Counted from the first letter of the stretch, positions 9,910 through 30,766 are shown. The stretch is 64,000 nucleotides of DNA from an uncultured Acidobacteriota bacterium (GCA_963813155.1 CAWEYG010000003.1:160001-224000), one strand, 5' to 3'. The notes: generated from the sequence alone by a model not told the origin. A program made the numbers and translations.

Positions 9910-11265
9910 TTGACCAGCAAAATGGTAGAGGGGAGTGGGAGCGTGGCGCCCGGACGCAGCGACGTTCGCATCAGCATGCTGCTGGGGCTCGTCTGCCTGC
10001 TCGTCTACAACGCGAACCTGAGGTCGATCGGCGCCGGCGACACGCTTCCGCGCCCGATACCTGCCGTTCGGCATCTGGCACTACGGCAGCGTGCTCCTCG
10101 ATCCGATCCGCGACGCGACGGCCGAGGGCCAGGCCACTCCCTACTGGATCCAGACGGGTCGGAACGGGCATTCGCTGTCGTTGTACCCGGTCGTGCTTCC
10201 GGTGCTCGTCGCGCCGCTTTATCTTCCGGCGGTCGTCTACCTGAACGCTCGGCGGATGGACTCCGGAACATCTGCGGCTGCGTGGCGGCCGTGATGGAGA
10301 AGTTGACGGCCTCCCTGATCGCCGCCGCGGCTTCGAGTCTGCTCTACCTGCTCCTTCGCCGCCGGGCCCGGCCGGCGGACGCGCTGCTGCTCACGCTGGC
10401 CTTCGCCTTCGGCACGAATACCTGGATGATCGGCAGCCAGGCTCTCTGGCAGCATGGACTTGCGGAGCTCCTCCTCGTCGGCCTCCTGCTCCTGCTCACC
10501 GCGCCTTGCAGCACCCGCGCGCGCGCTGGCGGCGGGCGTGCTGTGCGGCCTCATCGCGGCCAACCGACCTCCCGATGCCATCCTGGCGGGGGCGCTCGGG
10601 CTCTTCGGTCTCTTCTGGGCGGGGCGCCGGGCGCCCTGGCTGGCGGCGGGGGCCGCCGTCCCCCTCGGCCTGGTGCTGACCTACAACCTCGCTGCGGCGG
10701 GGCACCTCGCCGGCGGCTACGGGATACCCCGGACGGCGGGGTTCTTCCACCACGGACTGTTGACCGGCGTCGCGGGCCTGCTGTTCAGCCCGACGCGCGG
10801 GCTATTCGTCTTTTCGCCGTTTCTCCTCCTCTGTGCCCGCCGGCTCTCCGGCTCCGCGATCGCGACGGCGAGCGGGATCGAACGCTGACTCTCGTCATCG
10901 GTGTCGCCGCGGTCACCCAGATCCTGTTTTACGCGAAGACCGACTGGCGGGCCGGCTATTCCTGGGGGCCGCGCTGGCTCACCGACGTCCTTCCCCTGTT
11001 GGTCTGGCTGCTCCCGCCGGCGCTCGCGGCCCTCCGTCGGCGGGCCGTGCCGCTCTTCGTGCTGGCGAGTCTGCGCCTCGATCGCGATTCAGGCGATCGG
11101 CGCGTTCTGGTACACGGGCGCGAGCGACGGGCGATTTTCGCGGTCCGTTCCGGCCCCGGAGAGATGCGGGCGGCCTGGGATCCCCGGAACACTCCGTTCA
11201 TCGCCGAGCTGCGACACGAGCGGGCCTCCCCGCAGCCGGAATTCGCGAACTGGACGAGCATCTGA
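9910..11265 (+). CDS. Polytopic membrane protein, GT-C/PMT glycosyltransferase-like; multiple frameshifts
   Basis: Hydrophobic segments split across frames (GDTLP, SLYPVVLP, SQALWQHG, GLLFSPTRGLFVFSP, WGPRWLTD). Confidence 0.6.
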   Translation: MTSKMVEGSGSVAPGRSDVRISMLLGLVCLLVYNANLRSIGAGDTLPRPIPAVRHLALRQRAPRSDPRRDGRGPGHSLLDPDGSERAFAVVVPGRASGARRAALSSGGRLPERSADGLRNICGCVAAVMEKLTASLIAAAASSLLYLLLRRRARPADALLLTLAFAFGTNTWMIGSQALWQHGLAELLLVGLLLLLTAPCSTRARAGGGRAVRPHRGQPTSRCHPGGGARALRSLLGGAPGALAGGGGRRPPRPGADLQPRCGGAPRRRLRDTPDGGVLPPRTVDRRRGPAVQPDARAIRLFAVSPPLCPPALRLRDRDGERDRTLTLVIGVAAVTQILFYAKTDWRAGYSWGPRWLTDVLPLLVWLLPPALAALRRRAVPLFVLASLRLDRDSGDRRVLVHGRERRAIFAVRSGPGEMRAAWDPRNTPFIAELRHERASPQPEFANWTSI

Positions 11266-11289
11266 AGGGCGGACATCTGGCCATCGCCC

Positions 11290-12282
11290 GCGGGAGAAGA
11301 ACGACCTCGCGGCCGCGGCCCGGAACGCGGCAGCGCTCCTCACCTCCCACCAGCAGGCGGCGGGCTTCTGGCTCACGTCCTACACGGCGACACCGCGATT
11401 CGAGAACCCACGCCCGGAGAACAACACGTTCCTCACCTCGATGATGGTGGATCTGCTCGACGCCGGTCGCCGCGGGGGCGGGCGTCGAGCGAGAGCCTCG
11501 CGCGCGCGCGCGCTTATCTCCGCGACCAGATCGAGGCGAGCGGGCTCGTGCGCTACCACGGCCGGCCCGACGGGCCGACCATTCCCGCGCTCGGTTGCGC
11601 GATCACGCCGGATGCGGACGACACCGCTCTCGTCTGGAGGATCGCGGGACGCGACCGCGGAACGCTCCTGCCGCAGGCGCTCGCGGTCCTCACGCAATAC
11701 CGCACCCGCGAGGGTCTCTACCGCACCTGGCTGGCGCCGCGCGAGCGCTATGAATGCATCGACCCCGGAAAGGACCCCAACCCGGCCGACGCCGGCATTC
11801 AGATGCACGTGTTCCTGCTCCTCGCGCAGGCGGATCCGCCGGCGGCCCGCTGCCCTCTGCGGCGCTCTGCAGGGCGCGATCGGCGAGGACCGGTCTGGGT
11901 CTACTACGAGAAGGCGCCTCTCGTGCCGCTGCTGCGGCAAGCCGATCTCCGCCGGGCGGATGCCCGCTCCGCGTCCCCGAGGAGCGCGTGCGCGTCGCGG
12001 CGGCGGATCAGGAGGTCTGGCTCTCCGCGGTTCGGCTGCTCGATCGGCTGCGGAGCGGGGAGAATTCCGCTTCGTTATCGTCGGAGACGCTCTCCGTGCT
12101 CCGGGTTCTTTCGGCCGACGGGTTTTCCCTCGTCCGCCGCACTCCGCCCCTGCTGTACCACAACGATTTCACCGCGCGAACGTCCGCGCTTCTACTGGTC
12201 GGAAGACTTCGGGTACGCGCTCTGGCTGAGGCTGTACCTGGAGAGCACAGGTCGGGTTCATGGCGGGTTGGCGCATTCGTAA
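11290..12282 (+). CDS. Prenyltransferase/squalene-cyclase-fold protein with DxDD motif; frameshifted, possibly fused to the upstream membrane protein
   Basis: HQQAAGFW (QW-like), QIEASGLVRY, ITPDADDTAL, FYWSEDFGYALWLR distributed over three frames; start not resolved. Confidence 0.5.
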   Translation, partial: AGEERPRGRGPERGSAPHLPPAGGGLLAHVLHGDTAIREPTPGEQHVPHLDDGGSARRRSPRGRASSESLARARAYLRDQIEASGLVRYHGRPDGPTIPALGCAITPDADDTALVWRIAGRDRGTLLPQALAVLTQYRTREGLYRTWLAPRERYECIDPGKDPNPADAGIQMHVFLLLAQADPPAARCPLRRSAGRDRRGPVWVYYEKAPLVPLLRQADLRRADARSASPRSACASRRRIRRSGSPRFGCSIGCGAGRIPLRYRRRRSPCSGFFRPTGFPSSAALRPCCTTTISPRERPRFYWSEDFGYALWLRLYLESTGRVHGGLAHS

Positions 12283-13187: not shown

Positions 13188-13282
13188 GGCCATCACCGAT
13201 CCCGATCCGGCCGCCGCCAAGCGCGCGTTCGACGCGATGATGGAGATGACGAAGATCGACATCGCGGCAATCGAGGCAGCGC
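13188..13282 (+). repeat. 95 bp direct repeat, copy 1 (3' tail of a VOC/PhnB-type gene)
   Basis: 94/95 identical to 17630-17724; encodes AITDPDPAAAKRAFDAMMEMTKIDIAAIEAA. Confidence 0.9.
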
Positions 13283-13385: not shown

Positions 13386-13861
13386 GTGAAACAGCCAGCA
13401 GTTACGAATTTGGCACGTCGGCGCACGACCCGGGTTCTCTTGCTCGGCGCAGTCTCGCTCGTGCTCCTCTTGGTCGGTTGTCACGATTCAAATAATCGTC
13501 ACCGGCCAAGAAGTCGTCATGGGCCTCGCAGTCAAGGGGACGTATCGGCGGACCTCGCCGTACCTGTGGAGGATCTGGCCCGGTGGTCGTTTCGGTTGTT
13601 CAAACAGGGTCGGAAGTTTCAGCGGTCATACCGGGATTTGGTCATATCGAGTGTACCGCGGCGCCGGCGGGCACGCTTCCGCGGGTTACCGGCGCCACTC
13701 TGACAGTGGAGAACGTCTGCGGGCATCTCACCGAGACCTACAGCTACTTGCCCACGGATGATGGCCGGGTGCTGACGTGGTTTTTGCGGCCGAGCGCGGC
13801 GAGTCGTGCGGTTGCGGATCCGGAACGCTGGCAATTAGCCTCTAAGCTGACGCCCAAATGA
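13386..13861 (+). pseudogene. Frameshifted putative lipoprotein
   Basis: Lipobox LLVGC in ORF 13386; plausible continuation in ORFs 13519 and 13583. Confidence 0.4.
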
Positions 13862-14355
13862 TCCCAGCGTCGCGGAAGGGTCCATCATTCGCCGCAGTAC
13901 TAGCCTTGCTGCTGAGTTGCTGCGTAGCCTTCGCCGGTGATGCCCAGATCAAATCCCCATCGGAGTGGCGGTCGGAACCGTCCTCGTACCGGGGAGTCGA
14001 GTGGTGCGCCACGGAACAGTCGGTCCGCAAGACCTTGCCGACAGAAGAATGCAATGCCATGTCGCAGGCCGAACCCGAACATCGGTTTTGCACCGTGGAA
14101 ATGCTGTTTCCAAAATCAATGGCGCGGGTGGCAGAGGTATATGAGTTCAAGAGCGATCATCTGGCGTCCGTCTCGGTCGAGTTCCGAAAGAAGTCATTTG
14201 CGAGCGCGGTGTCGCTCCTCGAGAAACAGTTCGGGCCGCCCAGCAGCGTCGCACCATCGGGCGACTTCCTCTGGCGTGGGGAGAAGGTCAGGCTGACCGC
14301 TCGACGTGATCGGCCGTCGCCGCTTGCGTGGTTCGAGGTTCTAAAGTGCCCTTAG
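13858..14355 (+). CDS. Secreted hypothetical protein (cassette-like)
   Basis: Signal peptide VLALLLSCCVAFA; followed by a degenerate attC-like hairpin. Confidence 0.65.
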   Translation: MIPASRKGPSFAAVLALLLSCCVAFAGDAQIKSPSEWRSEPSSYRGVEWCATEQSVRKTLPTEECNAMSQAEPEHRFCTVEMLFPKSMARVAEVYEFKSDHLASVSVEFRKKSFASAVSLLEKQFGPPSSVAPSGDFLWRGEKVRLTARRDRPSPLAWFEVLKCP

Positions 14356-14368
14356 CTTCAGCGGGCCC

Positions 14369-14425
14369 GGCGAGCATGTCGTTGCAGCGGACCGCGGTTC
14401 TCGCCGCTGTAGCTGGGTCGGATGG
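14369..14425 (+). other. Degenerate attC-like site
   Basis: TTGCAGCGGAC...GCCGCTGTAGCTGGGTCG matches the core of the attC family at 23.9-27.3 kb; R boxes eroded. Confidence 0.55.
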
Positions 14426-14433
14426 GATTCAAG

Positions 14434-16750: not shown

Positions 16751-16922
16751 AACCACCTCCACGTAATCGTACCGCGGGTTGTTGCGCTTCCATGGGTTGC
16801 CAGAGAGGGGGCAAGGTCAGCTGTTGTCACGGGGTTGAGGCGTCTCAGACCCCACTTCCGTTCGCCTCCGGAGCTAACGCTGGTGGTTCCAGATTCCACC
16901 TCGTCCCGGTTGGGAAAACGGG

Positions 16923-17178
16923 GGGCATGGACAACTTGGGTCGAGACGAGACGGTCACCCGGAGCCGCCGGGGAGAGGGAGCTCTGGGGCAATCGGAACG
17001 ATTTCTTGGCTTGGTGTGGCTGTGGCTGTTTTTCCCGTCCACCGGAGGAAATTCGTGGCGCGGGCGAGCACGGGAGGCAAACACGAAAATAACGGCGGGG
17101 GATCGTGATTGCCGGCCTTCACTCAAGAACCCCTTTGCCCGCTTGCGAGAAAGTTTGGAGCGGGCAATCGGGGTCGAA
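16923..17178 (-). repeat. Inverted diverged copy of the tRNA-Gly 3' end plus island left arm (att-like)
   Basis: Reverse complement begins TTCGACCCCGATTGCCCGCTCCA (22/23 to the tRNA 3' end) and aligns to 21899-22164, including identical CACGAATTTCCTCCGGTGGACGGGAAAAACAGCCACA and CCAAGTTGTCCATGCCC. Confidence 0.9.
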
Positions 17179-17237
17179 GCGGTGGTAAACTAACCCCAGT
17201 TTTCGTGTCGAAACGTTCGGGGAGAGGGGGGGCCGAG

Positions 17238-17629: not shown

Positions 17630-17724
17630 GGCCATCACCGATCCCGATCCGGCAGCCGCCAAGCGCGCGTTCGACGCGATGATGGAGATGACGAAGATCG
17701 ACATCGCGGCAATCGAGGCAGCGC
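17630..17724 (+). repeat. 95 bp direct repeat, copy 2 (VOC/PhnB tail, continues to RHG-stop at 17735)
   Basis: 94/95 identical to 13188-13282. Confidence 0.9.
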
Positions 17725-17783: not shown

Positions 17784-17810
17784 TGCGGCCTCGCCGCAGA
17801 AGTCGGGTCG
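17784..17810 (+). other. attC-like 3' half-site
   Basis: TGCGGCCTCGCCGCAGAAGTCGGGTCG vs array consensus TGCGGCCTTGCCGCTGAAGCCGGGTCG; precedes a co-oriented gene. Confidence 0.6.
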
Positions 17811-19634: not shown

Positions 19635-20129
19635 ATGCGAAGACAGCTCGTGATGGTTGCCGCCTTGTCGGCCATTCTCGCCGGGTTCGCGAATGCGCAG
19701 ACCGTGTCGGCCATATCCCCCGAAATGCATATCTTCAGCTCGCCGATGATTCTTGAGGTAGCCCCTTTAATGTTTCAAGGCGACGTTTTCCAGGTCGACC
19801 TCAAGAACTATTCGTGCCGAGGCGTAACGATTGAGAACTTTTTCATATTCAGAAATTGGGGCAGTTCGAACCGGAAGACCGCGACGACTCCCGAAAACCG
19901 CGCTCTCGATCTTCGAGCGGCTCTCTTCAACAGCAGCGCCAAGGATAAGCAGTCAGTCCTGAGAGTAGACCTGATCGCTGGAGAGAGTGTGGTATCGAGT
20001 GGAGCATTGGCCATGAATACGAGTCCTGACGAAAAGAGAGTCGATCATCGCCCCTTTCCAAACCCACCAAACCCAGAAGAACTCGCGAAAGCAAAAATCC
20101 GAATCACGATGACTTGCCCGGACCGTTAG
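19635..20129 (+). CDS. Secreted hypothetical protein
   Basis: Signal peptide LVMVAALSAILAGFANA. Confidence 0.65.
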   Translation: MRRQLVMVAALSAILAGFANAQTVSAISPEMHIFSSPMILEVAPLMFQGDVFQVDLKNYSCRGVTIENFFIFRNWGSSNRKTATTPENRALDLRAALFNSSAKDKQSVLRVDLIAGESVVSSGALAMNTSPDEKRVDHRPFPNPPNPEELAKAKIRITMTCPDR

Positions 20130-20162
20130 CGTGATACCCGGCGCGAGAAAACACGACAGCCT

Positions 20163-20263
20163 CCCTAACGCCCAAATCGTCACGGTCGAGGTTGTCGCGG
20201 AGCCGGACCAACCCCCCATGTGAGCTGAACCCGAAGCCCGGATGGGTAACGCGCGAGTTAGGT
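20163..20263 (-). other. Candidate longer attC of a different family
   Basis: Minus strand ACCTAAC (contains the TAA stop of the 20258 ORF)...GTTAGGG, with inner CGTTAC/GTGACG complement. Confidence 0.5.
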
Positions 20264-20785
20264 CTCCTCTTGCAGCGCCTTCAAGGTTTCGTCGGCTTCC
20301 AGGATTGCGGCGCGCGCAGTTTCGGCGATTACGCCTTCCCTGCCTCCGCCGTATGAACCCGATGAAAGGGAAGTCGCCAAGCTGCCAAGACCCGTGACCG
20401 ACTGATAGAACTTCATGAAGGGGGTAGTCGCGTCGGGAACAAGGCTGAGAGGTCGGCTGTCAATCCGGAAGTCTGCCAATTTTGCCGTGAGCCTCAGCTG
20501 GTCCATGTCGCTCGGGTTTACTCGGAGGTTTTCGCATCGAGACCTGGCAACCAGAACCTCGGTTCTCAGAATTGCACGAGCGGCCCGAACCTCGGCGCTT
20601 CGTTGTTCGCGTTCCGGCTGACGGTCGCGCTCACGCTCGGCCTCGTTTTGCTGCCTGACAGCTCTGAGGGTATAGCGACCACCTACTACAGCGCCGACGA
20701 CTGCACCGACGAGGGCGCTCACGAATCCGATCGCGGCAGAGAGTAACTCGGGCACATTCGATCCGCTGATCTCAACGCTGGACAC
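20258..20785 (-). CDS. Hypothetical protein with N-terminal TM anchor
   Basis: ALVGAVVGAVVGG TM followed by coiled-coil; stop lies in a candidate R'' box. Confidence 0.6.
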   Translation of the reverse strand: MSSVEISGSNVPELLSAAIGFVSALVGAVVGAVVGGRYTLRAVRQQNEAERERDRQPEREQRSAEVRAARAILRTEVLVARSRCENLRVNPSDMDQLRLTAKLADFRIDSRPLSLVPDATTPFMKFYQSVTGLGSLATSLSSGSYGGGREGVIAETARAAILEADETLKALQEET

Positions 20786-21240
20786 TCAAGGATCCTATCT
20801 CTGACGGAACCGAGTTTCGCTACCTATCCATTGTCAGGCAGACCAGAACGGCCGCCACGAAAACGGCTACCCACCAACCCCACAAGTGAGCGGCGATTCC
20901 GCAAGCAATCAAACCGACGCAGACCCGGACGACCTCGATGGCACACCCGGTAGAGTCGAATCCCTCGCGGTCCATGCGATTCGGCGCCCTCATTCCTCTT
21001 CGGGAAGCTTACCTCTGTCGCAATCAGAGCAAAACGCCGGACCTTCGCCGGGCTTGAGTGGCTGGTGACACAGGTCACAATTCCGCGGCGTCGCCGGGTT
21101 CGTCATCGGAGCGTTCGGGTCGCGATCGTTCATCCGCATTTCTCCCTTCGCAGAAAAGAATAATCCTACCTGACCGCCTCTCGCGCACGTTCCGTCTTCT
21201 CGCGGAAGCGAGAGTAAAGAGTACCCGTTTCATTGGCCCG

Positions 21241-21756
21241 TCAGGGTTTCAGCTTGTACTCGGCGGCCATCGGGCCGGCGCCGGCCTGGTACTTTCGGGC
21301 GCGGGCGAGTTCGGCGATCTGGCGGATGTGGCCGAGGTCGTGGAGCGCCCATTCATTCAACATCTGCGCGAGGGTGATCTCGCCGTACTCCTGGTGCAGG
21401 GCGAGGCGATCTCCCGCGCCGGCGGGGAGGTTGCGGAGAAACGCGATGTTGTCCTCGCGCTGCTCCTCGAACTGATCGAAGGCATCTTCGGGGTCGGCGT
21501 CGCGATAGAGGTCGAGATACATCTGAGCGTCGTCGGGCTCGAACTCGGGACGCGTCTCCGCCAGGAAACGGTCGAGGCGCATGCGGTAGCAGTGGCCTTC
21601 GGAGTGCGAGAGGTGGGCCAGCACCTCGGCGACCGAGAAGCGTTCGGGCGCAGGCTTCCAGCGGGCGTCCGCCTCGGTCAGTTCCGTCATCAGTCCGCGG
21701 AGAATTCCCGGGGTGGCCTCCAGCAGATCGAGACAGGGCAGCCCGCTTTCCGTCAT
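21241..21756 (-). CDS. DinB family protein
   Basis: WKPAPERFSVAEVLAHL...ALHDLGHIRQI. Confidence 0.9.
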   Translation of the reverse strand: MTESGLPCLDLLEATPGILRGLMTELTEADARWKPAPERFSVAEVLAHLSHSEGHCYRMRLDRFLAETRPEFEPDDAQMYLDLYRDADPEDAFDQFEEQREDNIAFLRNLPAGAGDRLALHQEYGEITLAQMLNEWALHDLGHIRQIAELARARKYQAGAGPMAAEYKLKP

Positions 21757-21804
21757 GGGCTCATCGTACTTCCGAAGGCGCGGGAATCGGGCGAGGGGCC
21801 GCCG

Positions 21805-21833
21805 TTGCCGACTGCCGACGACTCCGATAAAAT
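21805..21833 (+). promoter_or_regulatory. Sigma70 promoter of tRNA-Gly
   Basis: TTGCCG-17 bp-TAAAAT, 13 bp upstream of the tRNA. Confidence 0.75.
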
Positions 21834-21846
21834 CCGGCTTCGCTGA

Positions 21847-21921
21847 GCGGGCATAGTTCAGCGGTAGAACGTCAGCTTCCCAAGCTGAATGTCGTCGGTT
21901 CGATCCCGATTGCCCGCTCCA
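21847..21921 (+). tRNA. tRNA-Gly (CCC)
   Basis: GCGGGCA/TGCCCGC acceptor stem, TCAGC-TTCCCAA-GCTGA anticodon arm, GGTTCGATCCC T arm, encoded CCA. Confidence 0.98.
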
Positions 21922-21958
21922 CTACTTCACCCAGGCGGGCACAGGAATCGTGAATAAC

Positions 21959-21990
21959 GGCGGGGGAGTACGATCCCCCGCCTTTCTTTT
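21959..21990 (+). terminator. Rho-independent terminator after tRNA-Gly (inside the island)
   Basis: GGCGGGGGA-GTACGA-TCCCCCGCC-TTTCTTTT. Confidence 0.8.
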
Positions 21991-22263
21991 CGTCTTTGCC
22001 ACCCGTGCTCACCCTCGCCACGAATTTCCTCCGGTGGACGGGAAAAACAGCCACAAAAACAGCCACAGCCACACCAAGCCAAGAAATAGTTTCGATTGCC
22101 CACAGCTACCGTGCCCCAGCGGCTCTGGTGGCCGTGTCCGCCTCGAGCCAAGTTGTCCATGCCCGCCGCCCCCATCGTCCTGATCGTGAAGGTGGAAACT
22201 AGGCTTTTCCGAAGATTCGTGCGGTGAAGCAGGCGCTATTCAGCCCGATTTCGGGCGGTTCCC

Positions 22264-24006
22264 CTATCGGTGAAGGCGGAAATTCACGGTTACGGTCAAG
22301 TACACGGCGACCGGATTCCCGTTGAGCTCAGCTGGTCGGTAGGTCCACTGGGAAATCGCGTTCATCGCCGCGGCATCCAAAGCGAGTGCGGAGCTTTTGA
22401 TGATGTGCAAGTCTTTGACGCACCCCACCCTGCTGATGACCGCCTCAATGATCGTAATGCCCTCCAGATGCGCCTGCCGTGCGCCAATCGGATAATCCGG
22501 CTCGACCCGTCCGGAAATCGTCGGTGGTTTGATTCCTCCCCGTATCCTCACCGTTTCGCCCCTTGACGTGATTGGCCGCGATTCCTCGTCGCACGAAAAG
22601 AATCCGCTCTGCAACGAGGTTTCGATGGTCAACGGATCGTCGATCGTGGTCGGTTCGTTCGCTGGGGCAAGGGACAACAAATATAGGCTCTTGAATGCGT
22701 CGAAGCAGGCGACCTTGATCGGGTCACCGACGAGCATCGTGATCGTGGCCGGTCGCCCATCGGGCCGGTATCCGACCTTAGCAAGCCCTGCGACATCGCA
22801 GGAAGCCACTTTGCGGAGATCTATCCCCAGGCCATGCGGCAAGTCTTGCGCCATCCACATTTTCGGCTGGGTGAGAAACGCCGGTTCGGTGCTTGCGTGT
22901 GGCTTGGAAGGTTCTTTCATGTGCTCGAGGAGGCTTGATTGCAGCTCCGGCGGCGCATTCTTCACATTTCGCTCGTCGATCGCGGAACGCTCGCCTTCGG
23001 TCAGATACCGTCGAAGAGGGCTCAAGTCGAGGTCGCTGTCGAGGTGACAGTGTTCATTGGTGCGAAGGCAGGCGATCCAATCCTTGTTCTCGACGGCAGG
23101 CTGGCCGAGAACCCGGCGCAGTAGTTCCTGACCGAACGCCACTTCCGGGTCGGCCGAGGCATCGTGCGTGGAAGTCTCCGCGTTCTTGAGGATCGCGAGG
23201 AGCTGGCTCCCATCGGGGGGAGGTTGGTCGCAATACTCTCTCGCCAGATACCAGGCGGTCTCGCTGCGGAGGGCGGGAGCCTCGGAGCCGAGCGCGGTCC
23301 TCACCACGGGCGAAGATGCAAGCGCGGGGTCATGTCGAGCGTCGGACAGGATCGCCCTCCACGAAGTGAGATCGTTGCGACCAAGGGCCATCGAGGCGGC
23401 CCCGAGAAGGCTGTCCTGTCCTCGAGTGGCGATGCGGAAAAAGGCCGCGCGATCTCCATCCAGGAGGTGCAATTTGTCGAGCTTGTCGAAATACATCGGC
23501 AACGCCGCGAGCCCCCGCGCACGGGCAAGCGCGAGCACGAGGTCGGCGTCTATGGCGCCGCCGAATCGCGAAGCCGCCTCGAGAACGAAAGAATCCTTGT
23601 TTCCAGGCCCAACGAGGATGATCGCCCGGATCTCTTCACGGGCGGCGGTGACGGCTGTTTCTTTCGCGAGTGCGGATTCCACGTCTGGAATGAGAGCGGA
23701 AACACCGCACGTCGTAACGGCTCGCGCCGCAACGCCGCGCACGTCGGGATTGGAATCTGCAAGCGCCGCCCTCCAGCGAGCAACTACCTGGGGGTCCTTG
23801 GAGTAAGGAGCCAGGAGCGCGATCGAGGCTGGCGAAACGGGCTTCCTCAGCAGAGATGACAGCCCGTCGGCAAAGGCGACCGGGGCGAGGCTCAACGAGC
23901 AAAGGAATAGAGCTCCGAGAATGGATGGCGCCAACGACCCGGCTTCAGCGGCAAGGCCGCAGGCCGAAGTCCGCTGCAAGCCGATGATGGGTGCGAAGCT
24001 TGTCAT
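22264..24006 (-). CDS. HEAT-repeat plus TonB C-terminal domain protein (cassette); start uncertain
   Basis: ALADSNPDVRGVAARA HEAT-like repeat; PDYPIGARQAHLEG...ISQWTYRPAELNGNPV TonB_C. Confidence 0.8.
   Translation of the reverse strand: MTSFAPIIGLQRTSACGLAAEAGSLAPSILGALFLCSLSLAPVAFADGLSSLLRKPVSPASIALLAPYSKDPQVVARWRAALADSNPDVRGVAARAVTTCGVSALIPDVESALAKETAVTAAREEIRAIILVGPGNKDSFVLEAASRFGGAIDADLVLALARARGLAALPMYFDKLDKLHLLDGDRAAFFRIATRGQDSLLGAASMALGRNDLTSWRAILSDARHDPALASSPVVRTALGSEAPALRSETAWYLAREYCDQPPPDGSQLLAILKNAETSTHDASADPEVAFGQELLRRVLGQPAVENKDWIACLRTNEHCHLDSDLDLSPLRRYLTEGERSAIDERNVKNAPPELQSSLLEHMKEPSKPHASTEPAFLTQPKMWMAQDLPHGLGIDLRKVASCDVAGLAKVGYRPDGRPATITMLVGDPIKVACFDAFKSLYLLSLAPANEPTTIDDPLTIETSLQSGFFSCDEESRPITSRGETVRIRGGIKPPTISGRVEPDYPIGARQAHLEGITIIEAVISRVGCVKDLHIIKSSALALDAAAMNAISQWTYRPAELNGNPVAVYLTVTVNFRLHR
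23929..23992 (-). other. attC-like site
   Basis: ACCCATC-ATCGGCTTGCAGCGGACTTCGGCCTGCGGCCTTGCCGCTGAAGCCGGGTC-GTTGGCG on the coding strand. Confidence 0.8.
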
Positions 24007-24371
24007 AGGTGCTTCCACTCTTCGACGACTACTTGGAACGGGTCTTCATAAAGGACTTCCCCCGGGTTCTTTGACCGCAGAAGTCTCACGGGAACACCAT
24101 GATCTTTGAGGAGTGATGTGAGTTCCCAGAGCCTCCGGATCGGCTCTCCCGCTCCATCCTTGAGCCATGCCACCGCCTCTTTCGTCCAGCCGCTGCTCTT
24201 GAAAGGCGGGCAAGGAAGGTTTGCGTCGAGCCATTCGTATGTTTCTTCGAGACGATCGGCCTGATAACGGTCCAGCTCTCCACGGTCCCGAAGGAGGCGC
24301 GCCTCCGCGACGATGCCCGTGAGCCCCCAATGGTGCTCGTGGTCATGGCCGACTACAAACCGCACGAACAT
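24003..24371 (-). CDS. Hypothetical protein (cassette)
   Basis: Clean 122 aa ORF lying between two attC-like sites. Confidence 0.75.
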   Translation of the reverse strand: MFVRFVVGHDHEHHWGLTGIVAEARLLRDRGELDRYQADRLEETYEWLDANLPCPPFKSSGWTKEAVAWLKDGAGEPIRRLWELTSLLKDHGVPVRLLRSKNPGEVLYEDPFQVVVEEWKHL

Positions 24372-24379
24372 CTTTGAGC

Positions 24380-24437
24380 ACCGGACGCGGCGTCAGCGGT
24401 GGCGCGAAGCGACATCCGCTGGACGCCAGTGTCGAGC
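24380..24437 (-). other. attC-like site with mutated R boxes
   Basis: GCTCGAC-ACTGGCGTCCAGCGGATGTCGCTTCGCGCCACCGCTGACGCCGC-GTCCGGT hairpin. Confidence 0.7.
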
Positions 24438-24440
24438 GAC

Positions 24441-24772
24441 TCAGCCCGATGGTGCTGCAAGATATATCCTCACAGTTCGGCCGTTAGCGAATGTTATGGT
24501 GAAGCCATTCTCGATCTCGCACGAGCATTCCGTAGCGTATCGCCACTCGTTCGTCCCGGTACCATTTTCTGGCGGACCGAGATTCTCAAGAACTTCCATC
24601 CTGGTGGACCCGAGGTGGAGAGCGCCCCAGTTGCCGAACCCTTCGCGCGGGTTGAAGTAGGCCCTAATAGCCTTTTTCTGCTCCCTTGGCGAAAGCTCTG
24701 GATCTACGCCGGTAGAAAGGGTGAGATCCCCAACGACGTTGTCCGTGTAGCACTTTGCGTGAAGCTTAGAGG
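24441..24772 (-). pseudogene. 5'-truncated cassette gene (BamE-like VLENLGPPE...EWRY...ITFANG)
   Basis: The ORF's N-terminus runs into an attC half-site, suggesting deletion of the original start. Confidence 0.5.
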
Positions 24773-24795
24773 CCCGTTGCCAGCCGATGTTAACC
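24773..24795 (-). other. attC-like 5' half-site
   Basis: GGTTAAC-ATCGGCTGGCAACGG; TAA stop of the 24790 ORF lies inside the R'' box. Confidence 0.65.
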
Positions 24796-25200
24796 GTTCT
24801 CACGGTTGACACCTTTCGAAAGCAACGAGAAGGTTATGGCGGCAAAGACTCCAGCCAGCAGAGCTCGGCCGGCCGCCTCGCCGACCTTTCCCGGCCAAGG
24901 TGCACCGCTGTAGTGAACGTCAGTCAGAAAGAACACTCCGGTTATTACCGCCAAGCCGATGACCCATGCGAGACGAGGCGGACGGCGGATCAGGAACGCG
25001 ATGCCGCCCCCCGTGATTGAACCGGCAACAATCCACTGCAGGGCGAATAAAGTTGGAAACGCCCAGGGCTCGCGGCGCACCAGACTGCTCCCCAGAGCGA
25101 CGCTGACAACCCCGACGGCGAGACCTGATAGCCAGAATGCGACGTAAGCGATTCCAACGACCGCGGCAGCATCGGCAATATTCTGGCGATCGTCAATCAT
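24790..25200 (-). CDS. Four-TM membrane protein (cassette)
   Basis: Hydrophobic 136 aa ORF; ATG about 8 nt after the R' box. Confidence 0.7.
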   Translation of the reverse strand: MIDDRQNIADAAAVVGIAYVAFWLSGLAVGVVSVALGSSLVRREPWAFPTLFALQWIVAGSITGGGIAFLIRRPPRLAWVIGLAVITGVFFLTDVHYSGAPWPGKVGEAAGRALLAGVFAAITFSLLSKGVNRENG

Positions 25201-25208
25201 TTTGAGCC

Positions 25209-25273
25209 ACCCAACGCCCCGCCCCCAGCGGCAAGGCTGCAGGCCGAAGTCCGCTGCACGCCGATGGTCGGGT
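25209..25273 (-). other. attC-like site
   Basis: ACCCGAC-CATCGGCGTGCAGCGGACTTCGGCCTGCAGCCTTGCCGCTGGGGGCGGGGC-GTTGGGT; flanks GCCACCC/GGGTGGC are complementary. Confidence 0.8.
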
Positions 25274-25281
25274 GGCGTGGG

Positions 25282-25557
25282 TTAGCTTTCGTCATCGCGC
25301 GCCTTGAGGTCTCTGATGCCACCCTTGACATTCCACACCCATACCGCAAGGAGAATGGGGATACCGATGGCTAGGAAGAGTCCCCCTGTCACATTGGCTC
25401 CCGTGCGGAGGGCTTTCACCACGCCCGAGAGTACTAAGAGCCAGACTCCGGAAAATACGAGGAAGAAGAAAACCGAACCTATCACCCGCGCCCTCGCCAA
25501 TCGTCGCCGAGTGTGGACCGGCCAACCCTTGATCATGCGCTCACCGCTGCCCGACAC
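25282..25557 (-). CDS. Two-TM membrane protein (cassette)
   Basis: Hydrophobic ORF between an attC half-site and a full site. Confidence 0.65.
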   Translation of the reverse strand: MSGSGERMIKGWPVHTRRRLARARVIGSVFFFLVFSGVWLLVLSGVVKALRTGANVTGGLFLAIGIPILLAVWVWNVKGGIRDLKARDDES

Positions 25558-25874
25558 CCGAACGACCCGGCTTCAGCGGCAAGGCCGCGGGGCGCCTGCC
25601 ATGCCGAGGCCTCAACCCCAAAGTCGGCCCGAGCCTGTTCAAGCGCATCCTCGAGCGAAGAATGCCACGAGTCGTTCATGGAGGTTCCATCTTCTCTTGA
25701 CCACTCCAAGATGAAACCGCCGTCTTCCTGAAGAATCCTCAGGTTCAGGCGGTCTACCTGAGATGGAGTGGCTGGAGGGGCCGCTGCATTAGGCGGTAGC
25801 CAACCATGAGCCTGCGCGCCGCCAGAGCGAACCACGCAGCCGAGAGCTTCCTTGATGAGAATGCTGTTACCCAC
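25533..25874 (-). CDS. Hypothetical protein (cassette) whose C-terminus reads through the attC half-site
   Basis: DSWHSSLEDALEQARADFGVEASAW followed by attC-encoded GLAAEAGSF. Confidence 0.7.
   Translation of the reverse strand: MGNSILIKEALGCVVRSGGAQAHGWLPPNAAAPPATPSQVDRLNLRILQEDGGFILEWSREDGTSMNDSWHSSLEDALEQARADFGVEASAWQAPRGLAAEAGSFGCRAAVSA
25557..25588 (-). other. attC-like 3' half-site
   Basis: GCGGCCTTGCCGCTGAAGCCGGGTC-GTTCGGG. Confidence 0.75.
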
Positions 25875-25878
25875 GGCC

Positions 25879-25945
25879 CTCTAACGCCCCGGCTTCAGCG
25901 GCGGCCGGCCGCAGGCGCGACATCCGCTGCACGCCGATGTTAGAA
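25879..25945 (-). other. attC site (best preserved)
   Basis: TTCTAAC-ATCGGCGTGCAGCGGATGTCGCGCCTGCGGCCGGCCGCCGCTGAAGCCGGGGC-GTTAGAG; RDD stop codon inside R''. Confidence 0.9.
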
Positions 25946-26491
25946 AGCATTGGTTCCAAGCGGTTTCTCGACGACCACAACCGTACCCGCAATGAAGTCA
26001 TGCAGGGCGCGTTTCTTCCGGTTGCTGACCAAGACGATCGCTTCGGCGAGTACCCAGGCGAAGATGCTCCACCTGAAAAAATATAACGAATGTGGCTCTA
26101 ACTGCCGGAACTGCTTCGACCGTTCTCGCCAACTCAGCGCTGCAAAGGTGACGGCCGGCATTCGGGAATACGCCACGAGGCTCCGAAGGAACGACGCTAT
26201 CGATGGAAACACATCAACGCATAGGCGAATGCTCGCCTGAGTCCAGGTCGCTCGCGTTCCGTCAAGGGCAAGAACCTTGATACCCGCGACCGACTTGCCA
26301 ATCGTCTTTCCCCACCGTCCGACGAAATAGATCGGATAAGCCAACGCTGCGACCTCGAACACGATCAGCGCCGAGATGGTGGCTTCTTTCGAATGGGAGT
26401 ACGCAACGAAGAACACCACGTAGAGCGGAACGAACACAACGAAGTCGATGAGGTGGGCTGCGACCCGGCGCCAGAACCCGGCGTAGATCAT
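25940..26491 (-). CDS. RDD family membrane protein (cassette)
   Basis: YAGFWRRVAAHLID...GKTIGK...RALHDFIAGTVVV. Confidence 0.92.
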   Translation of the reverse strand: MIYAGFWRRVAAHLIDFVVFVPLYVVFFVAYSHSKEATISALIVFEVAALAYPIYFVGRWGKTIGKSVAGIKVLALDGTRATWTQASIRLCVDVFPSIASFLRSLVAYSRMPAVTFAALSWRERSKQFRQLEPHSLYFFRWSIFAWVLAEAIVLVSNRKKRALHDFIAGTVVVVEKPLGTNAF

Positions 26492-26514
26492 CGTCGCTCA
26501 CCCCGTTTGATGCT

Positions 26515-26576
26515 TCCGAACGACCCGGCTTCAGCGGCAAGGCCGCAGGCCGAAGTCCGCTGCAAACCGGGTCGCC
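26515..26576 (-). other. attC-like site lacking R''
   Basis: GGCGACCCGGTTTGCAGCGGACTTCGGCCTGCGGCCTTGCCGCTGAAGCCGGGTC-GTTCGGA. Confidence 0.8.
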
Positions 26577-27269
26577 TCACGGCTTGGTTTTCTTCACGCA
26601 TAGGGTGTCCGCCTCAATCGGAGCGCACGGCCGAAGATCTGAATAGCAGCCCTCGGGCGCACGAAAGAAACAATCGATCACTCTCAGGTTGCTTGACGCT
26701 GGGCTTCTTTCGTTCGGATGCTGAAGCGCATAGACCTCGCCACTGGCCATGGCAACGGCAGTGAAAACCGTGTTGCCGTACCACTTCTCGTCTTCGGTCT
26801 TCTCGAATGAAGCGACCACTTTCATCTCGGCGGTCACCGCTCTCAAAGCCGCAGACGCATCGGCCGGCACAAGCGGAACGGCCTGGAGCGCGGAGTGTGC
26901 AGTTCTCACGAACTCATCGAGTCGCCTGAACTGCTGATGGTCGATCCGGTTCCTCACTCCCGTCCCGCCAGACGTGGCCGTATGGGTTGACGCGCATCCG
27001 GTGGCGAGAAAAGCCACAAAGATCGCACCGACCGTAAGAGGATGCGACATCCGCCGCACGCCGGTGTTAGCCCGCACGCCTTCCAGCTCCCTGCACTCCT
27101 GGACGATGAGGATAGCGACCGCTACCGCCAAGACCCACCAGACCGGATGAGGAAGGTCGAGGCGAGTCGCCGCCAAGAACATGGCGCAAGGTGCCGCGAT
27201 CAACAAGACAATTCTCAAGAACAGCTTTCCGGAACGCGATGTCTCGACGGGTTGCGACGATGCCATCAC
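26577..27269 (-). CDS. Chimeric ORF: two-TM cassette fused to a lipoprotein-like cassette
   Basis: GAGGAGG RBS; internal attC half-site at 27044-27072; internal lipobox FLATGC. Confidence 0.65.
   Translation of the reverse strand: MMASSQPVETSRSGKLFLRIVLLIAAPCAMFLAATRLDLPHPVWWVLAVAVAILIVQECRELEGVRANTGVRRMSHPLTVGAIFVAFLATGCASTHTATSGGTGVRNRIDHQQFRRLDEFVRTAHSALQAVPLVPADASAALRAVTAEMKVVASFEKTEDEKWYGNTVFTAVAMASGEVYALQHPNERSPASSNLRVIDCFFRAPEGCYSDLRPCAPIEADTLCVKKTKP
27044..27072 (-). other. attC-like 5' half-site inside the ORF
   Basis: GGCTAAC-ACCGGCGTGCGGCGGATGTCGC, close to the left arm of the 25879-25945 site. Confidence 0.75.
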
Positions 27270-27288
27270 ACCCTCCTCAACTTTTGCC

Positions 27289-27326
27289 GCCTAACGACCC
27301 GGCGTCAGCGGCGGCGAACCGCCGGA
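27289..27326 (-). other. First recombination site of the array (attC 3' half with perfect R')
   Basis: CGCCGCCGCTGACGCCGGGTC-GTTAGGC (GTTRRRY) about 20 nt before the first cassette start. Confidence 0.75.
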
Positions 27327-27441
27327 ACGACGTTTGCTGCGAGATGCTAACCCGCTTACCGCCTGGCGGGAACCGTGTCGGCAGCCACAGGAAAAAGGTG
27401 CGGAGGTATCGATCTCATAGCTCGCCCCTTACAAGAACCGG

Positions 27442-27493
27442 CGTCAGCTTCCCAAGCTGAATGTCGTCGGTTCGATCCCGATTGCCCGCTCCA
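27442..27493 (+). repeat. attR: displaced 3' 52 bp of tRNA-Gly
   Basis: CGTCAGCTTCCCAAGCTGAATGTCGTCGGTTCGATCCCGATTGCCCGCTCCA identical to 21870-21921. Confidence 0.97.
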
Positions 27494-27510
27494 ATTTTTT
27501 CTCACCGGTG

Positions 27511-27623
27511 CCCCCTCACCCGGTCCTCGCTCGCCGCGCTCGCGAGTCCCACCCTCTCCCTCGAGGGCAGCCTTCGAATCGCTTGGTGAACGCGGGAGGG
27601 CAAGCGCAGCGCGGGAGAGGGGG
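27511..27623. repeat. REP-like palindrome
   Basis: CCCCCTCACCCGG...CCACCCTCTCCC...GGGAGAGGGG. Confidence 0.55.
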
Positions 27624-27669
27624 AACCTGGGTTGTCATTTCCGGCCCGGGGAACTAAACTCGGGATTCC

Positions 27670-28158
27670 ATGGCTTTGTTCGGGAACAAGGAAAAAGAAA
27701 GATCGTTGCCGCCGAGCCCTCCGCCCGCAGCCGCGCCCAGCGCGGGGCCGGCGAAGGCGGCGAGCAAGGCCTCGGGAGGATCTACCGTGATCGGAAGCCA
27801 GATCAAGCTGACGGGCGAAATTTCGGGCGATGAAGACGTCGAGATCCAGGGACGAGTCGAGGGGACCATCAGCCTCAAGAAGAACCTCGTCATCGCGACC
27901 GGGGGCTCGGTGGACGCGAAGATCCACGCGAAGAACGTCACGATCTCCGGAAAGGTCAAGGGCGATGTGACCGCCGACGAGCGGGTCGAGCTGCTCGCAT
28001 CGGGCTCGCTGGAAGGAAACGTTCGCGCGCCGAAGATCGTCATCTCGGAGGGCGCGCACTTCCGGGGCAGCGTCGACATGTCGGCCTCCCGGCCCGAAGC
28101 CGCGAAGATGAGCGAGCCGCCGAAGCCGCCCGTTCCCGGGCCGCTGCCCGGCCACTGA
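27670..28158 (+). CDS. Bactofilin (polymer-forming cytoskeletal protein)
   Basis: [28 protein letters not shown]...ISEGAHFRG. Confidence 0.92.
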
Positions 28159-29642
28159 TGGTATCCGCCGAAAATCAAAACTGGATCGGGGGCCGCCGGG
28201 TCGCCTCCGCTTCCGGGAAGACCTTCGAGAATCGCAACCCGGCCGACCGCGACGACCTGATCGGGGTCTACCAGAAGTCGAACGCGAAAGACGTGGATGC
28301 CGCCGTCGCTGCCGCGAAGAAGGCCTACCGCGACTGGCGCCTGACCCCCGCTCCGAAACGCGCCGAGTACCTCTACGCCGCGGGCGACGTGCTCAAGCGG
28401 CGCAAGGAAGAGATCAGCCGGATCATGACCCGCGAGATGGGCAAGGTGCTCGCGGAGACGCGGGGCGACGTGCAGGAAGCGATCGACATGGCCTTTCTCG
28501 CCGCCGGCGAGGGGCGGCGCCTGTTCGGCGTGACCGCTCCGTCCGAGCTGAAGAACAAGTGGGCGATGGCGACGCGCGAGCCCGTCGGCGTGTGCGGGTT
28601 CATCACGCCGTGGAACTTTCCGATCGCGATTCCCGCCTGGAAATCGATGGCGGCGCTCATCTGCGGCAACACCGTCGTCATCAAGCCCGCCACGGACACC
28701 CCCGCCTCCGTCCTCGAGCTCGCGAAGGTGTTCGAGGAGGCTGGCCTGCCCGAAGGGGTTTTCAACGTCGTCACGGGAACGGGATCTGAAGTCGGGGACC
28801 CGCTCGTTCACCACCCGGACGTCCGGGTCGTCTCCTTCACCGGCTCGACGTCGGTCGGAAAGGCGATCGGCGTGGAGTGCGCGAAGCAGAATAAGCGCTT
28901 CCACCTGGAGATGGGCGGCAAGAACGCGATCCTGATCCTCGACGACGCGGACGTGGACCTCGCGGTCGACGGCGCGCTGTGGGGGGCGTTCGGCACGACG
29001 GGCCAGCGCTGCACGGCGTCGTCCCGGCTTCTCGTTCACAAGGACGTCCTCAAGTCTTTCGAAGAGAAGTTCGTCGCCCGCGCGAAGGCCCTGCGCGTCG
29101 GAAACGGATTGGCGGAGGGGATTGACATGGGCCCCTGCGTGTCCGAATCGCAGCGAGAAACGGTTGCGCGCTACGTCGAGATCGGGAAGGGCGAGGGCAA
29201 GCTGCTCGCCGGCGGAAAGAAGCTGACCGACGGCGCCTGGTCGAAGGGCTGGTTCCACGAACCGACGGTCTTCGAGGCCAAGCGCGACGCGCGGATCTCC
29301 TGCGAGGAGATCTTCGGCCCGGTGACGACGATCATCCCGATCGGTTCTCTCGAGGAAGGGATCGACGTCGCGAACGGCGTGGCCTACGGCCTGTCGGGCT
29401 CGATCTACACGCAGGACGTCAACAAGGCGTTCACGGCGATTCGCGATTTCGAAACGGGGCTCTTCTACGTGAACGCCGCGACGATCGGCGCGGAAGTCCA
29501 CCTGCCGTTCGGCGGGATGAAAGACACGGGCAACGGCCACCGCGAGGCCGGCATCGCGGGGATCGACGTCTTCACGGAATGGAAATCGATCTACGTCGAC
29601 TTTTCGGGAAAACTCCAGCGAGCGCAGATCGACAACAACTAG
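28158..29642 (+). CDS. Aldehyde dehydrogenase
   Basis: [35 protein letters not shown]. Confidence 0.97.
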
Positions 29643-29653
29643 GAGAGCGCCCC

Positions 29654-30766
29654 ATGATCGTCGGCCTTCCGAAGGAGATCAAGAACAACGAAAACCGTGT
29701 CGGCCTCGTGCCGGCCGGAGTCGCCGCGCTCACGAAGGCGGGGCACGAGGTGCTCGTCGAGAAGGGCGCGGGAGTCGGATCGGGAATCGAGGACGAGGAA
29801 TACCTTCACGCCGGCGGCAAAATCGTCCCCTCGGCCGACGACGTTTTTTCCCGGGCGGACATGATCGTCAAGGTGAAGGAGCCGATCGAGCCCGAATACG
29901 CGCGCATGCGGCCGGGCCAGATTCTCTACACCTATCTGCATCTCGCGCCCGCGGGCAAGCTCACCGACGTTCTCCTCGAGCGGCAGGTCACCGGCGTCGC
30001 GTACGAGACGATCACGGGGCGAAACGGGAGCCTGCCTCTCCTCACTCCGATGTCGGAGGTCGCCGGGCGGATGTCGGTTCACGTCGGCGCGTACTACCTG
30101 CAGAAATCCAACGGCGGGCGCGGCGTTCTTCTCTCCGGAGTTCCGGGAGTTCCGCCGGCCGACGTCGTCATTCTCGGGGGAGGCGTCGTCGGCACGAACG
30201 CCGCGAAGATCGCGGCCGGCATGGGCGCCGACGTCACGATTCTCGAAATGTCCCCCGACCGCATGCGCGAGCTCGACGACATCTTCATGGGCCGCGTCAA
30301 GACCGTCGCTTCGAATCCCGTCACGCTCGAAGAGGGCTGCCGCCGGGCGGATCTCCTGATCGGGGCCGTGCTGATTCCGGGCGCGGCGGCTCCGAAACTG
30401 GTGACGCGCGACCTCATCGCGAAGATGAAGAAGGGCTCTGTCGCCGTCGACGTCGCGGTCGACCAGGGCGGCTGTTTCGAGACGACGCACGCGACGACGC
30501 ATTCGGATCCCGTGTACACGGTCGACGGGGTGATCCACTACTGCGTCGCGAACATGCCGGGCGCCGTCGCGCGAACCTCGACGTTCGCGCTTACGAACTC
30601 GACGCTTCGCTACGCGCTGGAGCTCGCGAGCAAAGGCTTCGCGAAGGCCGTCAAGGAAAACGCGCATCTCGCGGCGGGCGTCAACACGTACAAGGGAAAG
30701 CTCACGTACGAAGCGGTCGCGATCGCCCAGAACAAGCCGTTCGTCCCGCTCGAAAAACTTCTGTAA
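29654..30766 (+). CDS. ald: Alanine dehydrogenase
   Basis: [35 protein letters not shown]; AGGAG RBS. Confidence 0.97.

Follow-up and report, generated by a model that had tools for sequence, protein, structure and literature searches.

A fossil integron cassette array as the probable cargo of an integrase-less islet at a tRNA-Gly(CCC) gene of an uncultured Acidobacteriota bacterium

We analysed a stretch of 64,000 nucleotides (nt) of an uncultured Acidobacteriota bacterium (GCA_963813155.1, CAWEYG010000003.1), which corresponds to G000:C3:160001-224000 and is called the window here; coordinates without a prefix are positions in the window, G000 is the genome assembly, and C1, C2, C3 and so on are its contigs. 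The assembly has 3.8 Mb in 23 contigs and is 90.8% complete with 3.76% contamination. The reading that we favour, with a probability of about 0.6, is that the DNA from 21922 to 27441 together with one copy of a 52-bp core is an integrative islet without an integrase, which resembles a cis-mobilizable element (CIME) and is inserted in the 3' part of a tRNA-Gly(CCC) gene, and that its cargo is a fossil array of integron cassettes. Apart from arms of about 0.4 kb, the whole cargo appears from the sequence to be integron cassettes of the host's own attC family; cassette clusters can sit on small helper-dependent islands.

The tRNA-Gly bracket and the array inside it

The tRNA-Gly(CCC) gene is the only tRNA that ARAGORN found in the window. 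The initial annotation had described an exact 52-bp direct repeat of the tRNA 3' part that brackets 5.5 kb, and this was borne out by repeat search and by BLAST, which aligned 21870-21921 with 27442-27493 at 100% over 52 nt; the attL and attR cores are identical at 52/52 positions and 5520 bp lie between the two copies. The repeat starts at position 24 of the tRNA, which is the last base of the D-stem and one base before the anticodon arm, and it ends at the CCA end. The last 31 nt of the repeat occur twice in the 64 kb, compared to 0.00 occurrences expected from 100 shuffles. Beyond this part of the tRNA no duplicated chromosomal DNA was found at the bracket by BLAST. When the 31-nt tRNA end was searched in viral contigs three loci were obtained, and all of these are phage tRNA-Gly(TCC) genes in tRNA clusters and are unrelated.

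Between the open reading frames (ORFs) of the island are hairpins of one family, the number of which had been put at about nine full or half copies. A profile built from all the sites recovered six full and three partial sites, in agreement with that count (Table 1). The motif CAGCGG..CCGCTG was matched six times in the window, five times in the island, compared to 0.44 matches expected, and for a 19-nt arm motif all six matches in the window were inside the island compared to 0.90 expected. When 25 bottom strands were folded with RNAalifold they gave a conserved stem of 10 pairs with one unpaired base on the R''/L'' side, and in a fuller model of 20 pairs 80.1% of the cells paired as against 29-44% when the partner was slid. 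The predicted stem has a single bulged base and canonical attC sites have two or three. An Rfam scan of 20000-30000 with E values up to 10 returned the tRNA and its partial copy only, and no attC-like family.

An attC site is an imperfect palindrome that can fold as single-stranded DNA, with R and L boxes, a central spacer that stays unpaired and extra-helical bases in the bottom strand. Such sites follow ORFs of one orientation, most of which have no promoter, at their 3' ends and form an array beside intI; the sites of the island come after minus-strand ORFs. The cores of attC sites have the form RYYYAAC in R'' and GTTRRRY in R', to which this family conforms but most of the island copies do not. 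The R'' AAC is kept in one of the six full island sites and in 16/16 sites of the main array of the resident integron described below (Fisher p = 2.3e-4), and the R' GTT is kept in 5/6 and 16/16, respectively. The decay is uneven: over its 56 core positions site 6 agrees with a main-array site except in the R'' triplet, and the 3' 49 nt of site 2 are exactly those of a main-array site. From these comparisons the island array looks like a decayed cluster of attC sites lacking an integron-integrase (CALIN), and the concentration of the changes in R'' suggests that cassettes outside the integron may persist once they have become non-excisable. Weak matches to decayed attC-like sites were also seen to the left of the tRNA at 14374-14431 (+, E 0.0035) and 17784-17810 (+, E 0.0046); these relics are on the strand opposite to that of the island sites, and the former comes after an ORF at 13858-14355.

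The genes between the copies had been described as short and co-oriented. All the long ORFs are indeed on the minus strand and most of them are of 91-230 amino acids (aa), the exception to shortness being one ORF of 556 aa. Besides this ORF with its TonB C-terminal domain and an RDD membrane protein there are six frames of 91-230 aa without a family in Pfam or NCBIfam, and in all eight ORFs these two databases gave TonB_C, RDD and a weak HEAT_2 match (E 2.4e-4, under the Pfam cut-off) and no integrase, relaxase or transposase family. It had also been said that the stop codons fall in R'' boxes. This is clear in two of the eight ORFs, namely 25940-26491, with its stop in TTCTAAC, and 24790-25200, with its stop in GGTTAAC, and two more stops are 1-4 nt off the box. 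The 556-aa ORF starts with a TTG within the R' box (GTTGGCG) of the preceding attC site and no attC follows it; against metagenome contigs it gave one weak partial match (44% over 34 residues). The 230-aa frame is, as judged by eye, probably made of two former cassettes, one for a small two-helix membrane protein and one for a lipoprotein-like protein (LATGC). When the island proteins were compared with the genome and with all the fetched loci, only two matches were found, which are the diverged paralogue of the 123-aa ORF and a match of 43 residues (65%) between the 230-aa frame and C2:633130-633258. The GC content is 0.605 in the island and 0.608 in the main array, and that of the genome is 0.659.

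Table 1. Features of the tRNA-Gly(CCC) locus in window coordinates; for the full attC sites the limits given by the profile are in brackets
Position	Strand	Feature	Evidence
21847-21921	+	tRNA-Gly (anticodon CCC), intact; last 52 nt (21870-21921) are the attL-side core	ARAGORN; Rfam tRNA, 69.1 bits
21922-22200	+	Proximal arm, with terminator-like hairpin 21959-21982 and three ACAGCCAC copies 22047-22072	Sequence; 250-280 nt after tRNA
22264-23934	-	Last cassette gene, 556 aa; signal-peptide-like N-terminus, HEAT-like repeats, TonB C-terminal domain	Pfam TonB_C 3.6e-17; TIGR01352
23927-23995 (23929-23992)	-	attC site 6; R'' AAC reads ATC	Alignment
24003-24371	-	Cassette ORF, 122 aa, no family	Pfam, NCBIfam
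24375-24440 (24371-24439)	-	attC site 5; R'' is GAC, R' GTT missing	Alignment
24441-24812	-	Cassette ORF, 123 aa as listed, start uncertain; diverged paralogue at C2:310612-310942	ORF call
24769-24795	-	Truncated attC, R''-L'' half only; contains TAA stop of 136-aa ORF	Profile, weak, E 0.099
24790-25200	-	Cassette ORF, 136 aa, hydrophobic, no family	Pfam
25207-25275 (25199-25274)	-	attC site 4; R'' GAC/ACC for AAC, R' is GTTGGGT	Alignment
25282-25557	-	Cassette ORF, 91 aa, hydrophobic, no family	Pfam
25533-25874	-	Cassette ORF, 113 aa as listed; C-terminus extends into truncated attC 25553-25598	Pfam
25553-25598	-	Truncated attC, L'-R' half only	Profile, E 3.7e-9
25877-25948 (25874-25946)	-	attC site 3; sole island site with both canonical cores, R'' TTCTAAC and R' GTTAGAG	Alignment
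25940-26491	-	Cassette ORF, 183 aa, RDD-family membrane protein; stop in R'' of site 3	Pfam RDD 5.1e-21
26513-26580 (26507-26569)	-	attC site 2; R''/spacer part changed (GAC)	Alignment
26577-27269	-	Open frame of 230 aa, reads straight through truncated attC 27043-27074	ORF call, profile
27043-27074	-	Truncated attC, R''-L'' half	Profile, E 8.7e-4
27287-27358 (27280-27350)	-	attC site 1; R' GTTAGGC intact, 5' half decayed (R'' AGC), no ORF before site	Alignment
27359-27441	+	tRNA-distal arm, non-coding, unique in genome	Sequence, genome search
27442-27493	+	attR-side core, exact copy of tRNA positions 24-75	Repeat search, shuffles, BLAST

The resident integron and the recombinases of the genome

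A profile built from six of the island copies gave 36 matches in the 3.8-Mb assembly, of which seven were in the island, 16 at C3:296709-303962, seven at C3:583084-587566 and two at C3:144710-145248, and four were single sites (C1:552643, C2:372451, C2:497429 and C3:320577). The 16 sites form a co-oriented array that starts 0.6 kb downstream of an integron integrase gene, intI, at about C3:295127-296120, and their cores are textbook ones, for example GCCTAAC...GTTAGGC. The intI gene has a Phage_int_SAM_4 domain and two pieces of PF00589, and the IntI-type insert LPDALARKYP..WAWQWVFP can be read in it. Against TIGR02249 it matched at positions 1-192 with 238.3 bits and at positions 185-315 with 212 bits, in two frames, each half by itself being below the 265-bit cut-off. 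The gene is split, the protein of the genus-mate G001 aligning over residues 22-220 in frame 3 and over residues 213-338 in frame 1, and the frame breaks where six G stand in a row. In G001 the integrase is in one open frame and is followed by 18 sites matching the same profile. In G000 the 16-site array runs in the same direction as intI and follows its stop codon, and the first cassette of the array appears by eye to encode a small TonB_C-like protein. The two other CALINs, at C3:583-588 kb and C3:144.7-145.2 kb, had no bracketing repeats or tRNAs.

By this profile the island hairpins can be assigned to the genome's own attC family, and because this is the attC family of the resident integron the island would be a CALIN. 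The definition of Cury et al. 2016 leads to the same assignment from the sequence, there being six full sites within 3.4 kb and the nearest intI being 107.6 kb away on the same contig. What had been described as two nested recombination systems is thus seen as attC-type sites inside a tRNA att bracket.

The initial annotation had stated that there is no tyrosine recombinase in the island or in the window, and this held when PF00589 was searched in six frames of the whole genome and the island ORFs were searched with Pfam and NCBIfam. PF00589 had four matches in the genome, none of them in the window, and these were the two pieces of IntI, a XerC-like gene (C2:645743) and a XerD-like gene (C6:93798). 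Serine recombinases (PF00239) were not found in six frames of the genome, and tblastn of G000 with the integrase of G030, a relative that is described below, returned the Xer genes only. An integrase of its own next to the tRNA, by which an autonomous island, a prophage or an integrative and conjugative element (ICE) is recognised, is absent from the locus. At the completeness of this assembly the absence of a recombinase is not proven. The proposal that the enzymes are supplied in trans is therefore supported in one part, in that an IntI gene (TIGR02249) is in the genome, but not in the other, as this gene is frameshifted and there is no tRNA-type integrase in the assembly.

Islets at the same tRNA in related genomes

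The 34 nt at the end of the tRNA were used, allowing for up to 3 mismatches, as a search pattern in 175 genomes of the order, which covers those genera whose tRNA differs by at most three bases, and the pattern was present in 55 of the 175. In 22 of the 174 genomes other than G000, 21 of them in one genus, there were two to four co-oriented copies of the tRNA end (one to three beyond the tRNA itself) at distances of 1-9 kb on one contig, which makes 29 intervals. Six of these loci were fetched, namely L058 (G010), L059 (G014), L060 (G060), L061 (G063), L062 (G061) and L063 (G055). The repeats were 44-56 bp long in four of the six (exact pairs of 46-49 bp), and in L062 and L063 the similarity extended over 130-164 bp. 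No attC sites of the G000 type were found in the six loci. The four loci that were annotated contain ten islets of 1.5-3.8 kb with one or two ORFs each, and the genes include those for a MacB/FtsX permease, an amidohydrolase, a P-type ATPase, a kinase-TPR protein, an SLH protein and a cyclase with RidA; none of the 12 ORFs scanned in these four loci was a recombinase. Many islets have in common a distal arm of 120-170 nt with iterated motifs, which are CTGTTCGCG in two copies, a GGGGATG-like motif, or GAGTTCAA in three copies. These arms fall into at least two families.

The flanks of the locus in G010 and in G063 are 91-93% identical and the order of the islets is different, being tRNA-MacB-amidohydrolase-ATPase in G010 and tRNA-SLH-amidohydrolase-MacB in G063, with an identity of 94.7% between the MacB islets and of 88.5% between the amidohydrolase islets. 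In tandem accretion new insertions go next to the tRNA. If new insertions adjoined the tRNA here as well, as we infer, the same islets would have entered the lines of G010 and G063 in a different order. Integrase-less islets thus appear to have been inserted independently at this tRNA in the relatives.

Elements that bear an integrase use the same site. In G030 (L068/L069, C57) and in G032 (L070, C87) an integrase gene is 0.4-1.1 kb from the 3' end of the tRNA, and the tyrosine integrase at tRNA-Gly in these genomes has 399 aa and is 0.4 kb from the 3' end. In G030 the next copy of the tRNA end is 70 kb away. At the far end of this element 186 nt are 86% identical to the distal arm of the ATPase islet of G010, and at its tRNA end 79 nt (the core and 33 nt) match the beginning of the same islet at 98.7% identity. 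Because the ends of the G030 element match those of the ATPase islet, at least some of the islets would seem to be integrase-less miniatures of integrase-bearing elements. The initial annotation had set the simple deletion of an integrase in related islands against its own interpretation, and this is in part what is seen, as one islet of G010 has the same two ends as the 70-kb element of G030, which bears an integrase. We also considered whether IntI or XerCD act on the tRNA, since two Xer-like and one IntI-like recombinase are the only tyrosine recombinases in G014, G055 and G063. This was rejected as the main reading because the block of identity starts at the anticodon arm, as it does with classical integrases, because G030 and G032 carry such an integrase beside the tRNA, and because the IntI-like gene of G010 is accompanied by an array of at least 24 repeats of its own, which is on the 3' side of intI.

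A tRNA without an island was seen in the genus-mate G001, where the conserved left flank (the window up to 13197) and right flank (the window from 27629) are 2.1 kb apart and have between them the tRNA and 1.9 kb of other DNA, with no second copy of the tRNA. G002 likewise has one copy of the tRNA. In G000 the same flanks are 14.4 kb apart, and the GC content of this stretch is 0.60 compared to 0.67-0.68 outside. In G018, which belongs to another family, the tRNA is 0.2 kb from the bactofilin gene of the right flank and has the orientation seen in G000, and in other genomes of the family of G018 the distance from the tRNA to the bactofilin gene is 6-84 kb.

Several other features of this variable region were observed. 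Compared to G001, G004 and G005, the tRNA and the 23 bases upstream of it are in the opposite orientation, and inverting 21824-27628 once would restore an order like that of G001, upon which all three tRNA-end copies would be co-oriented as in a tandem stack. The third of these copies is at 16919-17181 (minus strand) and consists of the last 26 nt of the tRNA and 246 nt of the proximal arm (79%) with two ACAGCCAC repeats and a 12-nt deletion; the arm itself is found there, inverted and 79% identical, at 16919-17151. A gene for a PKD-domain lipoprotein is on the other side of this copy and there is no attC alongside. A direct repeat of 95 bp (99%) at 13188-13282 and 17630-17724 brackets 4.4 kb. 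Judged by eye, this repeat corresponds to the 3' end of a gene that G001 has in full (L047, about 11000-11480) and that in G000 lacks its body; it forms, within this variable region, a second bracket made from a gene 3' end. The 135 nt from the distal tRNA copy to the conserved right flank (27494-27628) hold two short dispersed repeats that have the look of repetitive extragenic palindromic (REP) sequences or miniature inverted-repeat transposable elements (MITEs), with copies on C1, C2, C3, C6, C12 and C13 at 76-97% identity. Just upstream of the tRNA is a DinB_2 gene (21241-21756, minus strand). The region 21233-21769 has 89-91% DNA identity with G012 and G022, which are of another family, and among the matches listed there was none in genomes of the same genus or the same family except G006 at 71%, which suggests that the gene was horizontally transferred.

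Origin of the islet and its relation to known systems

The islet may have arisen as follows. A tyrosine integrase of the type that acts at the tRNA anticodon loop, encoded by a larger element, would have recombined a circular form of the islet with the tRNA gene, the attP of the circle being the distal arm, the 52-bp core and the proximal arm. The recombination would have restored the tRNA along with a terminator supplied by the arm, and left a 52-bp copy at the far end. The cassettes would have been assembled by IntI, either before or after integration. The array would by now be a fossil in which cassette excision is rare or nil, because R'' is mutated in most of the sites, three others are halves and the resident intI has a frameshift, and the islet would be mobile only if a cognate integrase enters the cell.

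There are observations that weigh against this origin. A cognate tRNA integrase was not found in the G000 assembly by any of the searches with PF00589, PF00239 and tblastn, and the intI frameshift, which falls on six consecutive G, may stem from an error in the assembly. The two 52-bp cores are still identical though the attC sites have decayed, which implies either the recent insertion of an array that was already decayed or selection on the sites. The orientation of the tRNA in the family-mates G001, G002, G004 and G005 is opposite to that in G000, and hence there must have been at least one further rearrangement or inversion at the locus. Across the 175 genomes of the order the proximal arm was found only as the two copies in G000 and in 0/174 of the others, so that no autonomous relative of this particular islet is known. 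Finally, covariation in the hairpin was not above that of shuffles, because the copies are too alike.

If the islet were instead a working non-autonomous element that exchanges cassettes at present, with IntI and a tRNA-Gly integrase both acting in trans, one would expect intact att cores, an IntI gene in the genome and independently inserted sister islets in the relatives, and all of these are found; moreover, site 3 is fully canonical and the intI frameshift in the G6 run could be a sequencing error. However, five of the six full sites lack the R'' AAC, compared to none of the 16 in the main array, one of these five also lacks the R' GTT, three sites are truncated, the assembly has no tRNA integrase, and the island cassettes were found in no other fetched locus and in the genome only as one diverged paralogue. 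It is therefore unlikely that the element ferries cassettes now, and this claim of the initial annotation is not supported in that form. Its observations were confirmed and its interpretation is partly supported, the nesting being real and the present activity doubtful. Another route into the tRNA, which we consider quite unlikely, is by way of a 2.2-kb cassette with a tRNA-like stretch, made of the 556-aa ORF, the proximal arm, the core, the distal arm and attC site 1. A circle of several cassettes excised by IntI would then have entered the tRNA through that stretch, by a RecA-dependent single crossover or with a visiting integrase. The anatomy closes when it is circularised, as the array opens with an attC that has no ORF and closes with an ORF that has no attC. 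The last ORF begins exactly at the cassette boundary with its TTG inside R', neither end cuts an ORF, there are as many units as full attC sites, and the bracket formed by the 95-bp repeat (99%) from a gene 3' end is similar and is 4 kb away. But 52 bp is short for RecA recombination, the arms have iterated motifs like the arms of attP, and the proximal arm is also present beside the tRNA fragment at 16919-17181, where there is no attC, which shows that arm and core exist apart from cassettes.

An inversion or a segmental duplication, without any mobile islet, could also have separated part of a cassette array from the integron and given rise to the partial copy of the tRNA. Rearrangement is one of the origins of CALINs listed by Cury et al. 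2016 (PMC4889954), the tRNA has the reverse orientation in comparison with G001, G004 and G005, and the decayed attC-like relics at 14374-14431 and 17784-17810 are left of the tRNA. This is nevertheless very unlikely, as the repeat runs from just before the anticodon arm exactly to the CCA end with no chromosomal duplication beyond the tRNA part, the same limits of the repeat recur in about 29 islets of 22 other genomes, and in G018 the tRNA is 0.2 kb from the same right-flank gene. A misjoining of cassette DNA from elsewhere at the repeated tRNA sequence deserves a mention because the genome is a draft in 23 contigs with 3.76% contamination and repeats invite misjoins, but we give it hardly any credence: both junctions are inside a contig of 1.05 Mb on which the integron with this attC family is also found, the DNA that follows on either flank is syntenic with G001, and two coordinated errors would be needed.

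An extension of the favoured reading, in which the integrase-less islet is the vehicle and the fossil array its cargo, is rather unlikely and is put forward tentatively. According to it the tRNA-Gly(CCC) gene would be a second capture platform in the order that is similar to an integron, at which islets of one or two genes are stacked and were re-inserted independently by an integrase encoded elsewhere, and in G000 the minimal circle would be both a cassette and an attP-bearing islet. This minimal circle is the 556-aa ORF, an arm, the core, an arm and attC, and the islets carry a 46-52 bp copy of the tRNA end and a conserved arm with iterated motifs. If this were true, cassettes would be able to leave the integron by this route, and CALINs would have an additional origin.

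Integron cassettes are reportedly found in islands at the 3' end of a tRNA or other gene in the tRNA-Gly ICEs of Pseudomonas aeruginosa and in SGI1, and these are said to encode an integrase themselves and to carry a class 1 integron that is complete and is part of a transposon, whereas the G000 island is without intI, attI and an island integrase. The islands at ssrA in Dehalococcoides also reportedly carry their own recombinase, unlike the G000 islet and the islets of the four annotated relatives. What they have in common with the present case, as described for Dehalococcoides (PMC3146451), is serial insertion at one RNA gene and repeated copies of its 3' end. A CIME, as ICEberg 2.0 (PMC6323972) describes it, has intact attL and attR and has lost the genes for integration and transfer. 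The islet is like a CIME in having attL and attR intact, in being without integration and transfer genes and in being at a site of tandem accretion. It is unlike those described there (PMC6323972) in that its host is an acidobacterium and not a streptococcus, its cargo is an attC array and no partner ICE is known; the likeness is one of structure. For mobilisation in cis by an ICE at the same site, the analogy would be the G010 islet that shares its ends with the 70-kb element of G030.

The four origins of CALINs that are given by Cury et al. 2016 (PMC4889954) are cassette genesis, insertion at secondary sites, loss of intI and rearrangement, and most CALINs are described there as far from any intI pseudogene. 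The island has the properties of a CALIN as set out in that article (PMC4889954), with at least two attC sites, no intI nearby, an IntI in the same replicon, a small size (six full sites) and cassettes of unknown function. It differs in being within an att-flanked islet with an exact repeat of a tRNA 3' end, carriage by an integrative element not being among the origins listed in the article. The insertion of cassettes by attC x attG recombination (Loot et al., 10.1101/2022.09.11.507474) is similar in that, in genomes with an IntI, it accounts for cassettes and small CALINs at a distance from the integron; G000 also has the single sites at C1:552643, C2:372451 and C2:497429. As described by those authors it makes no long direct repeat, and the array expected from it has the ORF first and the attC last, the reverse of the order in the island.

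In the literature searched we found no paper on an integrase-less tRNA islet with an attC array for its cargo and none on tandem islets at tRNA-Gly(CCC) in Acidobacteriota. As to how CALINs originate, this case offers the possibility that an attC array can be the whole cargo of an att-flanked, integrase-less tRNA islet. The tandem one-gene islets without an integrase, which occur lineage-wide at tRNA-Gly(CCC) in these soil Acidobacteriota, mark this gene as a candidate site of helper-dependent gene capture, and the order-wide stack of such helper-dependent islets is the lead that is most worth following.

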